Shown here piece after piece: positions 20,616 to 29,467 of a stretch of 64,000 nt of DNA. Made by a program: the position numbers and the translations under genes. Under the pieces are notes generated by a model that did no database searches, was not told the origin of the DNA, and was given only the letters and a program-made list of their open reading frames with translations. The stretch lies in contig CAZHRK010000003.1 in the NCBI GenBank assembly GCA_964534555.1, positions 72,627 to 136,626 on the forward strand, given 5' to 3'. Position 1 is the first letter of the stretch. Each line of letters begins with the position of its first letter. This stretch comes from an uncultured Pseudomonadota bacterium. Lineage in GTDB: Bacteria > Babelota > Babeliae > Babelales > RVW-14.

Positions 20616-21698
20616 TTAAAGACCAGCAGCTGCAAGGTGTGCAAGATGCGCTGACGCGCGTGCTGATTTATCAGGGTCTTCTGTTTGCGCTTGAAGTACT
20701 AGAAGGTGTGCCTTCAGCTCGTCAATTATTTCATCGTCTACATGGAGTGTAATGTAGTTTCCGACTGTTTCTGCAGTCAAAGAAACTCTTATTTTACCTG
20801 TTGTAATGTGCATCGGGTCTTGTTTGAGTGCTTTTTGAAATGCTGCATGATAAATAGTTGGACGGAAATCTTTTGCAACATCACCGCTCATAGCGATTGT
20901 AAAAACCTTACCATCTCTAAATGATCGTGCAATTGCACCAGTTGTTGGCATAACTACTGAACCATCGCTCTCAATAAGTTGGCGATCAATCGGTGCTGTA
21001 ACACGAACGCAGAAGGTAAAAGTGCCATCTTTACGAATATCAAGGCCAAAGCTTGGTAGAACTGACGGGTATAAGAAGGCTGTTTTAAGAGATTCATTTG
21101 AGCAGAGGTGGTCGCATACATTGTTTTGAGCTATATGGTTAGGAGCAACCTCTCCTCGTTTAGCTCTTTCAGCTCTATCTTCTGTAATAAAACGAATAAT
21201 GTTTACAGGGCTACGATCATTAACGCGTGCATGCAAGTCGAAAATGATTGTGTCATTATTTATAAAATTCGAAACAGGATCACCAGAAAACAGCTCAGGT
21301 GCAAATCTAAATGGCCACTGAGCAAGCGCTCTAGTTTTTGTTGTTGAGTGTACAATTCCTCTGCCCCCAGGTGTTGCTTGAAGGTTGTTGGTATGACTGT
21401 CTGGGCGCTCCGGAGTGTGGTAGTGTACAACTTTAGCTGATCGCGGTGGGGTGCTAGCAGGTGCAGCACTTATAGAAGGTGATAAAACTTTTGTTGTTGG
21501 GGCACCAAGCGCAGCAAGGACATCATCTGGAATTAAAGAATCTGCTCGAGGCGATGCGCTAGCACCGGCGCCACCTCTTAGTGGTGATGCTGTATGCTCT
21601 GAAACTGATGATCTGCGTGTTCTGGGTGGAGTTGCTGTTGATGCAGCATTACTATCAAGTACAGCGGCAACTGTTATGAGTATGAGTGTTTTCAGCAT
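20616..21698 (-). CDS. Secreted protein, paralog A (disordered Pro/Ser/Arg-rich N-region plus a conserved domain of about 250 aa), unknown function
   Basis: The ATG at 21698 follows AGGAAATCAC and gives the signal peptide MLKTLILITVAAVLDSNA. It shares ATPGGRGIVH and TIYHAAFQK blocks with the next gene. The ORF maximum is 21746. Confidence 0.75.
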   Translation of the reverse strand: MLKTLILITVAAVLDSNAASTATPPRTRRSSVSEHTASPLRGGAGASASPRADSLIPDDVLAALGAPTTKVLSPSISAAPASTPPRSAKVVHYHTPERPDSHTNNLQATPGGRGIVHSTTKTRALAQWPFRFAPELFSGDPVSNFINNDTIIFDLHARVNDRSPVNIIRFITEDRAERAKRGEVAPNHIAQNNVCDHLCSNESLKTAFLYPSVLPSFGLDIRKDGTFTFCVRVTAPIDRQLIESDGSVVMPTTGAIARSFRDGKVFTIAMSGDVAKDFRPTIYHAAFQKALKQDPMHITTGKIRVSLTAETVGNYITLHVDDEIIDELKAHLLVLQAQTEDPDKSARASAHLAHLAAAGL

Positions 21699-21758
21699 GT
21701 GATTTCCTATAAGGGCTTGTAATTTTATTTCGATTTTAATGAGCATGGGGCGAGTATT

Positions 21759-22829
21759 TTAGGCTGTAATCAGCGTATCGATAACAGCCGAAAGCTCAAC
21801 TGCATCAGCATATTCTTGATGTGAAGAGTCGGCAGCGATTACATCGACTCGTGCTTTTAGATCGGCCAGAGCAGAAGCACCAACAGTGTATGTAATTTTC
21901 TTGTAGGATGATCCATCTGGATTGTTGGCATCAACTGCAGAAAGGTTAATATCCTTTGTTTCAATCTCAAATGTCCATGCCCCAAATGATTTTTGAAATG
22001 CTGCATGATAAATAGTAGACAATTCACAGCTAGGAACCGCTTCAGATCGTACTGCAATAGTAAAAAGCTCTGATTTACTAAATGAGTTTCCAATTTTGCC
22101 GCCAGGCGTACGTGTTGCAGGGTCTCCAATTTTTACGACTGCTTCACGATTTATAGTTGCTGTAATGCGGATATACGTGAAAATATTGCCGGTCTTATGA
22201 TCTTTTTTTATACCAAAGGCGATTTTGCGTGATGGGTATATTACAGCAGCTTTTAAAAGTTGCTGTGAGCATATATGGTCATAAATATCTGATGATGCAT
22301 AAAATGGGTCTTTATTTTTGCTTTGGGGTGTCAGACCGCTTTTACGGCGATCATTTGCAATCATAGCGACTATTTTATCGCTAAGATTGTTTTCAACACG
22401 CTTTGCAAGATCAAAAACAACATCTTTGTTCATAATAAAGCTCGTATTAGCGCCGTCTTCAAAAAGCTCTTCATCCCATGCATAGCATTGATCACTAAGC
22501 GTTGATGTTTTTTGGATTATATGGATAATTGAGCGACCACCAGGTGTTGCTTTATGAGGGATAGTAGCTTTTTCATCGCGCATAGGCGTGCGCTTTGTTG
22601 GCGCCTCTTCGGCTGCTTTTATGTTTTGATGGGTTGGTGTTCCATACTTGCTTGGGCTGCCGAGTATTCTGCGTAACGGTGTTTCTTCTCTCGGACGAGT
22701 TGAGCGTGCTGGGCTTGCATAAGAAGCATCAGTAGTACCAGCGTTTTCAGTTTCAGGCTTTACGCTTGGGCTTTCTGCCCCAAAAAGCGGAGTAAAAACA
22801 AGAGTCATTATAAGAAGAGGAATATGCAT
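21759..22829 (-). CDS. Secreted protein, paralog B of the 20616 gene, unknown function
   Basis: Signal peptide MHIPLLIMTLVFTPLFGAES from the ATG at 22829 (ORF maximum 22871, GTG). Collinear with paralog A: ATPGGRSIIH, DHICS vs DHLCS, TIYHAAFQK. Confidence 0.75.
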   Translation of the reverse strand: MHIPLLIMTLVFTPLFGAESPSVKPETENAGTTDASYASPARSTRPREETPLRRILGSPSKYGTPTHQNIKAAEEAPTKRTPMRDEKATIPHKATPGGRSIIHIIQKTSTLSDQCYAWDEELFEDGANTSFIMNKDVVFDLAKRVENNLSDKIVAMIANDRRKSGLTPQSKNKDPFYASSDIYDHICSQQLLKAAVIYPSRKIAFGIKKDHKTGNIFTYIRITATINREAVVKIGDPATRTPGGKIGNSFSKSELFTIAVRSEAVPSCELSTIYHAAFQKSFGAWTFEIETKDINLSAVDANNPDGSSYKKITYTVGASALADLKARVDVIAADSSHQEYADAVELSAVIDTLITA

Positions 22830-22942
22830 TGCTAATAAGCCTTTCGTAAGACAATCTTTAAAGTGCCCCACTGAGCCTGAGAAAAGCTTGAGGGGGGCAC
22901 CATTATAGAGATTCTATCGATATTAGCAACCGTTACCAGGCC

Positions 22943-27626: not shown

Positions 27627-27651
27627 TTGAAACTTTAAATTGATCGGCAGC

Positions 27652-27915
27652 TTAGTCGAAGTCTATTTCATCATCGTCATCATCATCGCTGTCATCATCG
27701 CCATCAAGACCTTCGTCGTCTTTTAGCGCACCAATTTCACGCAGTGAATTAACGCCATCCTCTTCTTCTTCAAAAGACGCGTCAGCTTTGAAAGCATCTT
27801 CAACAACGTGCTCTTCTGTTGCAACAGGTGTTACATCAGCTGCTTCTTCAGTTGCCATAACAAAACCAAAAGAAGCTGTAAGCGCCAGCAAAGCAGCCAT
27901 AACAAGGTACAACAT
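27652..27915 (-). CDS. Small secreted hyper-acidic protein (87 aa)
   Basis: Signal peptide MLYLVMAALLALTASFGFVMA, then an Asp/Glu-rich mature part ending DGDDDSDDDDDDEIDFD. A strong AAAGGAGGA sits before the ATG and the gene has its own terminator. Confidence 0.7.
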   Translation of the reverse strand: MLYLVMAALLALTASFGFVMATEEAADVTPVATEEHVVEDAFKADASFEEEEDGVNSLREIGALKDDEGLDGDDDSDDDDDDEIDFD

Positions 27916-28096
27916 AAAGATCCTCCTTTGGGGAATAATATAATATTGCTCAATTACTAGATCGCACGTATCCTAATTTTGTGCAAATTTGCTGGTTTGT
28001 CAATCTCATAGTCTTCAAAAAGCACTATGCAATCGGCTTCAGCAAGTAATTTTAAAGGTAATTTAACATCGAATTTTGTTTTTCGAAAGTAATCTC

Positions 28097-29467
28097 ATGA
28101 GGATTAATCAACAGGCCCTTTTTGTTGGGCTTTTTCTCGTGACTGTATCACTGTGTCGTGCAGAGACTGACTTCTTGTCTTTTATGGCTCCCGGCCTAGG
28201 TGATCAGCCTTCCTATGTAATAAAGCCTTGGACAGTTTCTATAGGTGATCGTATTCGATTTGGCCAAACTCATGATAGTTATGATAATCATGAGTCTAAG
28301 AGTGCCTTATTTAATAAGGCAGGCTCATGGGACCTTGTCCATTTAGGCCTTGGATTAAATGACTCTGATAGGAATAATCCTTTAAAACCAGCAACTCGTG
28401 CAAAGTGGGGTGCTGCTGGTGCGCCGTTTGCTGCACTTAATAATTTGTCTGCTGATGATGGAAAAGCAGATGTAAGTGGTACTTTGAAAATTCTTGATAT
28501 GCGCCATACAGTTGCTGTCACGCTCCCATTAGGATTTTTTGTTGATGCAGCGCTTCCTGTTCGTCAGATCACCACAGAAGGCGTGATTATTACCCCTAAG
28601 GGCGGGCTTGTTGTTAATGGTGTTGCTATAAATACCTATCTAGCAAATGATCTACCGTTGATTGCAAAAGAGCATGGCATTGAGCTTAATCTTGCAAGAA
28701 CAACAAAAGTTGGGCTCGGGGATCTAGCTGTTGCTGGGGGGTGGCAAGGTGCCCATGACAATAAATCAACGATTTTTACCTACCTTAAGGGCTTATTTAA
28801 AGCAGGCGCTCTTTTCCCTACTGCACATGAGCAAAATAAGGATCTTTTGATCAGCTTTCCTTTTGGCTATAACGGTCATTATGGATTTTTTGGTCGGGGT
28901 GCTGTAGAGGTTACTATTTTTGACGCATTTACTGTTGGTGCAACTGCAGGAAGCACGGTGTTTTTGAAAAAAACACAAGAGATGCGTGTCAATACCAATC
29001 CTGACCAGAACGGACTTTTAAAGCTGCAAAAAACTCGTGTGAGAGAGGATCTTGGCTCACTGATCAATCTTGCCGGTTATATAAAGGCAGATAAAATAGT
29101 GCGTGGTTTTAATCTTCTGCTTGGCTACTCATTTACACAGCAGGAAGCTACAGTCCTTGAAGCGCGGTCAGATGATTATCTACGTGATTTTACAGCGGCT
29201 CAACTTGCAAATCTTCAGGCTGGTGGTGCGCGTACACCGCTAAGTTTTATTTCTCGGTATGAGGTTTTGAATAGTGATCCTGGGCTTAAAGCTTGGCAGC
29301 AGCAAGTCTTGCATGCGGGAATGTCTGTTGATACTCAGGTGCTTACGGGTGGCAAGCTTGGAGCTGTGCTTGGTCTTGAGTACGCATATCCTGTTATGGG
29401 TAAGCGCGTGTACGCAACTGGTATGTTCGGCGGCTCTGCAGCTTTTAAAATGATCTTTAATTTCTAG
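28097..29467 (+). CDS. Putative outer-membrane beta-barrel or porin-like protein
   Basis: The ATG at 28097 gives MRINQQALFVGLFLVTVSLCRA (ORF maximum 28076). The sequence is Gly/aromatic-rich with an alternating pattern, and the C-terminus ...AAFKMIFNF ends in Phe. Confidence 0.55.
   Translation: MRINQQALFVGLFLVTVSLCRAETDFLSFMAPGLGDQPSYVIKPWTVSIGDRIRFGQTHDSYDNHESKSALFNKAGSWDLVHLGLGLNDSDRNNPLKPATRAKWGAAGAPFAALNNLSADDGKADVSGTLKILDMRHTVAVTLPLGFFVDAALPVRQITTEGVIITPKGGLVVNGVAINTYLANDLPLIAKEHGIELNLARTTKVGLGDLAVAGGWQGAHDNKSTIFTYLKGLFKAGALFPTAHEQNKDLLISFPFGYNGHYGFFGRGAVEVTIFDAFTVGATAGSTVFLKKTQEMRVNTNPDQNGLLKLQKTRVREDLGSLINLAGYIKADKIVRGFNLLLGYSFTQQEATVLEARSDDYLRDFTAAQLANLQAGGARTPLSFISRYEVLNSDPGLKAWQQQVLHAGMSVDTQVLTGGKLGAVLGLEYAYPVMGKRVYATGMFGGSAAFKMIFNF

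Follow-up and report, generated by a model that had tools for sequence, protein, structure and literature searches.

In two-partner secretion, TpsB is an Omp85-type barrel of 16 strands that follows two POTRA domains (Pfam ShlB, POTRA_2, Bac_surface_Ag), and TpsA combines an N-terminal TPS domain (Haemagg_act) with a right-handed beta-helix shaft. RTX substrates of type I secretion systems carry GGxGxD nonapeptide repeats and a C-terminal secretion signal and have no Sec signal peptide. Repeating beta-groove (RBG) bridges, the group of AsmA and TamB, form a continuous beta-taco with a hydrophobic groove and an N-terminal inner-membrane helix, and the C-terminus of TamB is docked into the Omp85 protein TamA (PMC13542527). 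In a 64-kb stretch of DNA from an uncultured bacterium (contig CAZHRK010000003.1; the window), five consecutive genes for exported proteins, here called A to E, form a block between rnpA/yidD and argS/lepA, and the original prediction had taken this block for one export or adhesin module with two-partner logic. Our analysis favors, with moderate confidence, a different reading: separately transcribed genes for exported proteins would form a lineage-specific cluster around a member of a large protein family (the C family), and the block would not be a conserved five-part secretion machine.

A six-frame list of open reading frames (ORFs) reproduced all five genes at the predicted coordinates and on the predicted strands. 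Pfam annotation agreed with the predicted bracketing by rnpA-yidD and argS, with genes for RNase P protein, YidD and an M16 peptidase of 918 aa flanking the block at one end and those for ArgS and LepA at the other. The ratio of nonsynonymous to synonymous divergence (dN/dS; Nei-Gojobori) was determined between the window and the only close relative compared, a second assembly from another sequencing run (L001) with ~91% nucleotide identity to the window over 22 kb. The five genes, from the ORF list, and their dN/dS values are as follows.

20616-21698, minus strand: gene A, 360 aa, dN/dS 0.158.
21759-22829, minus strand: gene B, 356 aa, tandem paralogue of A, dN/dS 0.291.
22943-27523, minus strand: gene C, 1526 aa, dN/dS 0.046.
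27652-27915, minus strand: gene D, 87 aa, signal peptide plus polyacidic mature part, dN/dS 0.043.
28097-29467, plus strand: gene E, 456 aa, candidate outer-membrane beta-barrel, dN/dS 0.052.

For comparison, the same measure gave 0.024 for argS, 0.028 for the M16 peptidase gene and 0.095 for a heptosyltransferase gene. A and B thus evolve markedly faster than C, D and E. Because A-E are all intact in L001, in the same order and free of stop codons, and because their dN/dS values are low, we regard all five as expressed, constrained genes, and the sequence comparison confirms them as real genes under purifying selection. The predicted export signals were also recovered, in that a hydrophobicity heuristic found in each of the five proteins a hydrophobic N-terminal h-region and no transmembrane-like segment further on. 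The G+C content and skew of the block are the same as those of its flanks; recent horizontal acquisition of the block was rejected on this likeness in base composition and on the position kept in relatives.

The proposal that the five products belong to unknown families stood as far as curated libraries go: searches of A-E against Pfam, NCBIfam and PHROGs gave no family match beyond coiled-coil noise, and PDB searches of A/B (as a profile), C and E (sequence or profile) likewise gave coiled-coil noise only. It did not stand for C, which sits in a large unannotated family. A word-indexed search with C had found just a 96% orthologue and one fungal protein, and an indexed search with a 45-sequence family alignment returned 7 proteins. 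This near-orphan status was overturned by a full-sensitivity HMMER scan with residues 80-1260 of C as the query, the coiled coil being left out, which yielded 587 representative clusters at E<=1e-3, 338 at <=1e-10 and 111 at <=1e-30. The members are mostly 1,000-1,700 aa long and share a core corresponding to about residues 450-930 of C, the N-terminal part (80-440) being common to a minority only. By a hydrophobicity test, 113 of the 150 best members have a signal-peptide-like N-terminus, and recurrent motifs of the family include AGTMxGxWxNPxGIKG, APxGGxIGEIxF and GPLxITGxGxDxKYGTxDDGP. When C and 13 other members were searched individually against Pfam, no known domain appeared beyond coiled-coil noise. 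At E<=1e-5, a set of 23 long proteins (19 members and 4 peripheral ones) matched only PKD_4, in two peripheral proteins, and Ank_2, in one protein. No name for any member was found in the cluster records.

The homologous loci that we fetched range from 37% to 63% G+C, a spread that points to members in several lineages. The fungal relative (P0002, Calocera cornea HHB12733, CALCODRAFT_458663; E=3e-16) aligns to the beta-rich region of C and then to its coiled coil, in the same order, and two further loci (L011 and L012) also have the beta core ahead of the coiled coil. A weak relative is a hypothetical protein of the B. thuringiensis plasmid pBMB267 (WP_142286820; L018 6906-9749), with 25% identity over 263 aa (E=5e-4); its gene adjoins a SIR2-family gene. 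The fungal and plasmid relatives point to a cross-kingdom distribution, horizontal transfer or assembly contamination. In another locus (L007 5341-9662), the beta core (1,024 aa) and a coiled-coil protein with a signal peptide (414 aa) are separate genes with 3 nt from stop to start. C in the window is a single polypeptide, so a fission or fusion of genes has taken place in the family. The same locus has a second gene of the C family, of 935 aa, 1.8 kb past the coiled-coil gene. Together, these comparisons show that C belongs to a large unannotated family with a signal peptide, a ~480-aa beta core, a coiled coil and a ~50-aa C-terminal domain. We conclude that the C family is real, large and undescribed, and that its novelty lies at the level of a domain of unknown function among large, modular, Sec-exported proteins.

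The description of C as a 1,526-aa repeat protein was borne out by the finding of three tandem modules of ~153 aa. A conserved Shine-Dalgarno sequence, AAAAGGGG, precedes its ATG, and the protein then runs from a hydrophobic N-terminal export signal through a linker rich in Ser, Thr, Pro and Lys, a beta-rich part (~80-440), the core, two extra modules and a coiled coil to the C-terminal domain. Its mapped parts, all on the minus strand, are as follows.

24719-26206, minus strand: family-conserved core of C, about residues 440-935 (coverage profile, motifs, AlphaFold2).
23834-25210, minus strand: three tandem ~153-aa repeat modules of C, about residues 772-924, 925-1077 and 1078-1230 (repeat analysis and module hidden Markov model, HMM).
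22946-23731, minus strand: helical coiled-coil region of C (~1265-1470) and ~50-aa conserved C-terminal domain (coiled-coil matches, relatives).

The family core ends with repeat copy 1 as its last module, and copies 2 and 3 are extra; copy 1 is 44% identical to copy 2 and ~31% identical to copy 3. Across the family, the module HMM counted one copy in 119 proteins, two in 24, three in 5 and six in 1. The coiled coil carries short repeats of the VVDTGK type and was the only part of C to match in the PDB profile search, where its matches were generic (keratin, ApoA-I, EmrA), as was the Pfam match to T3SSipB (E=0.073). The C-terminal 300 aa gave coiled-coil-type matches only and are probably alpha-helical. 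In Pfam, C matched neither Autotransporter nor YadA_anchor, nor Haemagg_act, the TPS domain, nor HemolysinCabind, which served as the RTX test; an N-terminal signal peptide is present in C and most of its relatives. The view that the block contains no TpsB/Omp85, autotransporter or RTX part was therefore upheld by the lack of any such signature in Pfam and NCBIfam.

An AlphaFold2 model of the core (residues 440-935), built from the 45-sequence family alignment, reached a mean predicted local distance difference test score (pLDDT) of 90.5 and a predicted template modelling score (pTM) of 0.74. The model is a nearly pure beta meander, with strands of 8-13 residues, turns of mostly 2-4 residues and a few short helices. 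When it was compared with the PDB and BFVD by Foldseek, only two PDB matches fell below E=1e-3, both to LptD (4n4r), and further matches were to the ApoB100 beta-belt, SlpA, VDAC, Tom40 and usher barrels. All PDB matches had template modelling (TM) scores of at most 0.27, with a root-mean-square deviation (rmsd) of mostly ~20 A (about 15-30) and an identity below 12%. The BFVD matches were tail-fibre-like, with TM scores of at most 0.2. We rejected assignments to the LptD, ApoB100, SlpA, VDAC and tail-fibre folds, given the low TM scores and a likeness confined to a repeated up-down hairpin pattern. There was thus no convincing fold match for the core in the PDB or BFVD, and this structure search agrees with the claim that C falls in no characterised family.

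The nearest analogies are instructive in their limits. LptD and the ApoB100 beta-belt, the sole Foldseek matches with E<0.01, share long up-down beta hairpins with C, but TM scores of 0.18-0.22, an rmsd above 20 A and 8-10% identity make this an analogy of secondary structure and not homology. Proteins of the OmpM/SlpA type also combine a long coiled coil with a large antiparallel beta region, and Deinococcus SlpA (PDB 8ae1) had the highest query TM score (0.26) among matches with E up to ~0.01, PapC (2vqi_B) reaching 0.27 at E=0.04. However, C has its beta region first and its coiled coil last, lacks an SLH domain, and has a variable number of modules incompatible with a closed barrel, and a TM score of 0.26 is no fold match. 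Because the last core module multiplies in tandem (1-6 copies), we rejected a closed barrel for C and take the protein to be elongated and extendable.

The prediction of a five-part module was also compared with the contexts of distant C homologues. Eleven loci were available (L007/L008, L009, L010, L011, L012, L013-L017 and L018), six of them only 2.9-8.5 kb long and with little flank; in L007/L008 the core is ~31% identical to that of the window. By tblastn, phmmer and profile searches of six-frame ORFs, no neighbour of a C homologue in these loci resembled A/B, D or E, and none had an aromatic C-terminus like that of an outer-membrane protein or a polyacidic composition. A transporter that served C alone should accompany the family, and no candidate for one stands beside the C homologues of these loci; the five-gene module is not supported. 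The synteny that the prediction anticipated is thus kept in L001 and absent from the distant loci, with the caveat of the six short ones.

What does recur is the position of C. In L007 the order is C homologue, coiled-coil gene, a 163-aa gene, the second C-family gene, rpmH, rnpA and yidD, followed on the opposite strand by an M16 gene whose product is only 30% identical to the M16 peptidase of the window; several exported orphan proteins are encoded in this neighbourhood. In L012 no other gene intervenes: rpmH and rnpA (41% identity) come directly after a C homologue (39% identity). These gene orders indicate that the place of a C-family gene ahead of the rnpA operon goes far back in the wider lineage, with A/B, D and E as local additions. 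The gene for L34, rpmH, is directly upstream of rnpA in both L007 (13188-13316) and L012 (2516-2650). The window has no rpmH at that position or anywhere in its 64 kb, and A and its terminator (20566-20615) abut rnpA. Next to the distant C homologue of L009, a three-gene cassette for small signal-peptide proteins is duplicated in tandem (5301-9864, minus strand); the two copies encode 199/252/267 and 187/250/280 aa, are pairwise 33-54% identical and have no Pfam matches.

The block also appears to be divided at the level of transcription. A consensus scan found 20 terminator-like sites, compared with 9.9 in shuffled sequences, and three elements at or within the borders of the block bear on its division.

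20566-20591, minus strand: terminator-like hairpin with an 11-bp stem and a T-run, between A and rnpA (consensus scan).
27599-27628, minus strand: terminator-like hairpin with a 12-bp stem, 7 G-C pairs and a T-run, between D and C (consensus scan).
27916-28096, strand not assigned: divergent intergenic region between D and E with a promoter-like site for D (consensus scan, comparison with L001).

By stem length, the two hairpins are among the three strongest in the scan, and both are identical in L001 despite a synonymous divergence of ~0.4. The promoter-like site of D reads TTGACA-16-CAAAAT (28003-27976), a strong Shine-Dalgarno sequence, AAAGGAGGA, precedes the gene, and D appears to be monocistronic. 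E is divergent from D and oriented to argS, from which it is parted by a spacer of 93 nt that is 98.9% conserved and in which the consensus scan predicted no terminator. Taken together, the conserved terminators, the promoter-like site and Shine-Dalgarno sequence of D itself and the orientation of E toward argS indicate separate units, and on these sequence signals the block is best read as at least three, namely C-B-A, D alone, and E, possibly running on into argS-lepA, and not as one operon.

The prediction that E is an outer-membrane beta-barrel fared less clearly. The protein has the sequence features expected of such a barrel: a signal peptide likely cleaved after CRA (Kyte-Doolittle, KD, value of the h-region 2.85), a mature size of ~434 aa, about 20 amphipathic beta-strand-like segments (21 in the heuristic count), no transmembrane helix and, as an aromatic C-terminal beta-signal, the end ...FKMIFNF (segments and C-terminus by heuristic). 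In the word-indexed search its only homologue was a 95% orthologue, and AlphaFold2, given the resulting 2-sequence alignment, produced an unusable model (pLDDT 26), so that the sequence features carry the assignment by themselves and E is a probable outer-membrane beta-barrel. No Pfam or NCBIfam match was found at E<=0.1, including POTRA, ShlB and Omp85, and no PDB sequence match. The signal peptide, strands, mature size and C-terminal F-x-F are those of generic outer-membrane barrels that depend on the beta-barrel assembly machinery (BAM), in the size class of porins, FadL and OprD, but E matches no outer-membrane protein family in Pfam, NCBIfam or PDB. We envisage E as a BAM-assembled barrel that may serve as a general channel and would not be dedicated to C.

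D agrees with its description as a small poly-acidic secreted protein. The mature part has 66 residues, 30 of them Asp or Glu and 3 Lys or Arg, and ends in DDDDDDEIDFD. The protein is 98.9% identical to its counterpart in L001, with an unusually low synonymous divergence (dS) of 0.11 compared with ~0.4 elsewhere. The intergenic region between D and E agrees with L001 at 180 of 181 nt, and the whole segment 27524-28096, comprising D and both of its spacers, is 97-99% identical in nucleotides, against a background of 91%; nowhere in the 21 kb compared with L001 is there a longer stretch of high conservation. Promoter-bearing spacers at 17034-17433, 29334-29833, 31034-31333 and 32934-33333 are similarly conserved. 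An RNA element in the D region was considered and rejected, since the only Rfam matches in the window are tRNAs and conservation is just as high in other spacers that bear promoters. The region is likely to be under strong constraint on expression level or regulation, and D may be an abundantly expressed polyanionic peptide that is periplasmic or secreted.

For A and B, the account of two tandem secreted paralogues proved sound (33.8% identity over 222 aa, E=2e-32). Each has a signal-peptide-like N-terminus, a low-complexity linker of ~100 aa rich in Pro, Ser, Thr, Ala and Arg, and a globular domain of ~250 aa, and the motifs TPGGR, DHxCS, YPS and IYHAAFQK are invariant in A, B and their orthologues. 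B is the fastest-evolving gene of the block (85% nucleotide identity to L001). Its start was placed at the ATG at 22829 because a 1-nt indel in L001 breaks the in-frame extension upstream. As one Cys and several His residues are invariant (DHxCS ... YHAAFQK), these fast-evolving secreted paralogues are candidate secreted enzymes or effectors.

The rest of the window gives the block its setting. LPS heptosyltransferase, HldE, LpxI, TolC, FtsW and a Mur ligase are encoded in it, which identifies the source as a diderm. Several other Pfam-less ORFs have signal-peptide-like N-termini, so that orphan exported genes are common in the window: a 2,651-aa ORF (163-8118, minus strand) whose N-terminus ends in ...SSAHA, which is unrelated to C by BLAST and has no real Pfam domain beyond sub-threshold WGG and WHIM1 fragments; an 819-aa ORF (46629-49088, plus strand); and a 397-aa ORF (14810-16003, minus strand) between a TolC-like gene and the heptosyltransferase gene. 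Two ankyrin-repeat proteins with hydrophobic N-termini are encoded at 51281-52978 and 53219-54979 (both plus strand), and together with the orphan secreted ORFs they suggest a host-associated lifestyle. A 187-aa ORF (41018-41581, minus strand) matched PF04518 (chlamydial type III effectors) at E=9.5e-4 with 18.8 bits, below the cut-off of 23.8, and was not used. The window also encodes an ATP-dependent DNA ligase of three domains (DNA_ligase_A_N/M/C; 36873-38657, plus strand), a kind unusual for bacteria, which is kept in L001. L001 in turn has an extra 778-aa gene without a Pfam match (960-3296), next to a 96-aa ORF, downstream of a MerR-family gene and upstream of secD; ~170 nt (34008-34180) are its only counterpart in the window, an indel polymorphism of an orphan gene. 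The dnaA gene (62322-63752, minus strand) is ~42 kb from rnpA, and the block thus lies in the wider origin-proximal region.

If the cluster reading is correct, the products of the block would be Sec-exported envelope or secreted proteins, and their clustering would reflect the region ahead of (rpmH-)rnpA-yidD, which in this wider lineage carries a C-family gene and gathers variable genes for exported proteins. C itself would be exported by Sec and form an elongated modular beta structure, its C-terminal coiled coil serving for oligomerisation or contact with a membrane surface. It may then act as a contact protein at or beyond the cell surface, adhesin-like or toxin-like, toward another cell or membrane.

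Two other accounts of the block disagree about whether its genes belong together. The original prediction of two-partner-like export would have C as an exoprotein passing through E as its dedicated barrel, with D and A/B as accessory chaperones or co-secreted factors. Here too a large, Sec-dependent, beta-rich protein lies near a divergent probable outer-membrane protein and small neighbour genes, C, D and E are equally constrained (dN/dS ~0.05), the arrangement is kept in L001 and the run of orphan genes is mildly non-random. We nevertheless consider this account unlikely, since signatures of POTRA, ShlB or Omp85 are missing from E, as is an N-terminal TPS domain from C, and the predicted long-strand meander of the C core is unlike the short-strand beta-helix of TpsA. 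In addition, C and E are divergent and parted by D with its own terminator, E is directed toward argS, and the partner is not conserved with the C family: no gene like that of an outer-membrane protein stands beside the homologues in L007, L009, L010, L011, L012 or L018, and members occur on a Gram-positive plasmid and in a fungus, where an outer membrane is absent. With neither co-occurrence in the distant loci nor a predicted shared transcription unit nor TpsA/TpsB signatures, the single export or adhesin module is not sustained. At the other extreme, five unrelated orphan exported genes may be neighbours by chance, with no shared biology, in a genome where ~30% of genes lack a family. Of the 43 window genes, 13 have no Pfam match, several others are secreted orphans, the distant contexts differ, and collapsing the A/B duplication weakens the run statistic. 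Such adjacency is very improbable in our judgment, because a run of at least five such genes has P ~0.04 by permutation and because the exported orphans beside the C-family genes of L007 suggest a recurrent region for exported proteins.

The remaining accounts concern what C does. C could be an envelope-bridging lipid-transfer protein of the AsmA/TamB type, anchored in the inner membrane, with a hydrophobic groove and with E as its outer-membrane partner. C is long and of variable, modular, extendable architecture, its N-terminus has no charged n-region and might act as a signal anchor, its core is a meander of 8-13-residue strands with an occasional crossing helix, the best Foldseek analogies (LptD, ApoB100 beta-belt) are lipid-facing, and the source is a diderm with an adjacent outer-membrane protein gene and LPS genes nearby. 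However, C and the 13 other members gave no match to AsmA, AsmA_2, TamB, DUF748 or DUF3971, and no TamB, YhdP, VPS13 or ATG2 structure was among the top 50 PDB matches. AsmA proteins have no 300-aa C-terminal coiled coil, most C-family signal peptides look classical and cleavable, and homologues occur outside diderms, in the Bacillus plasmid and the fungus. The partner of TamB, moreover, is an Omp85 protein (PMC13542527), and signatures of that kind are missing from E. We regard this account as distinctly unlikely. Alternatively, the C family may consist of secreted toxins that damage or coat membranes, binding or perforating them with an amphipathic sheet and helices, and the neighbours would then be unrelated. 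This would suit a Sec-exported family whose meander resembles membrane-embedded or lipid-surface sheets (by analogy only), whose C-terminal helices weakly match HBL, Nhe, MakE, SipB and ApoA-I, which has a homologue on a B. thuringiensis plasmid and paralogous copies in L007, and which occurs in a genome that looks host-associated from its ankyrin-repeat proteins. Yet none of the helical matches reaches its threshold and all look like the usual coiled-coil noise, the B. thuringiensis relative is weakly similar and has no toxin genes beside it, and there is no MACPF, aerolysin or ClyA-type signature; the strong purifying selection on C is atypical of arms-race toxins, and we think this role improbable. 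The boldest proposal, that C-family proteins are new-fold, modular beta-sheet and coiled-coil exoproteins acting directly on membranes, as agents that coat them, handle lipids or form pores, and that in this lineage they have recruited a dedicated barrel E, a polyanionic chaperone D and enzyme-like A/B into a new outer-membrane export or contact system, is one to which we give little credence. The block falls in no known secretion-system family that was tested, and the evidence for its being a system is weak.

Our preference for a lineage-specific cluster of separately transcribed genes has to be set against several considerations. The terminator and promoter calls that divide the block are consensus matches. 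A-E stay together in L001 with high constraint on C, D and E, and the orphan run, although its P of ~0.04 is inflated by the tandem duplication of A/B, is in favor of a link between the genes. The distant contexts number only about a dozen, several of them on short contigs, and in those genomes the partners of C could be encoded elsewhere or have diverged beyond detection. Homologues of A/B and E were sought in a word-indexed database or with local profiles, which makes their orphan status less secure than the family membership of C. Finally, the surface-contact role that we propose for C is inferred from its predicted architecture.

The idea of a new secretion module is therefore not well upheld, and the block matters only modestly in its own right. 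The part to carry forward is the C family: large proteins with signal peptides, in hundreds of divergent clusters, for which neither Pfam nor NCBIfam has a model. The few members traced to a source come from one fungus, a B. thuringiensis plasmid and uncultured bacteria, the contigs of the last having 37-63% G+C. C was called an orphan by the word-indexed search and not by full HMMER, and relatives of A/B, D and E may have been missed in the same way. With the C core there is a concrete candidate both for a new domain family and for studies of surface and host contact in poorly known, probably host-associated bacteria.

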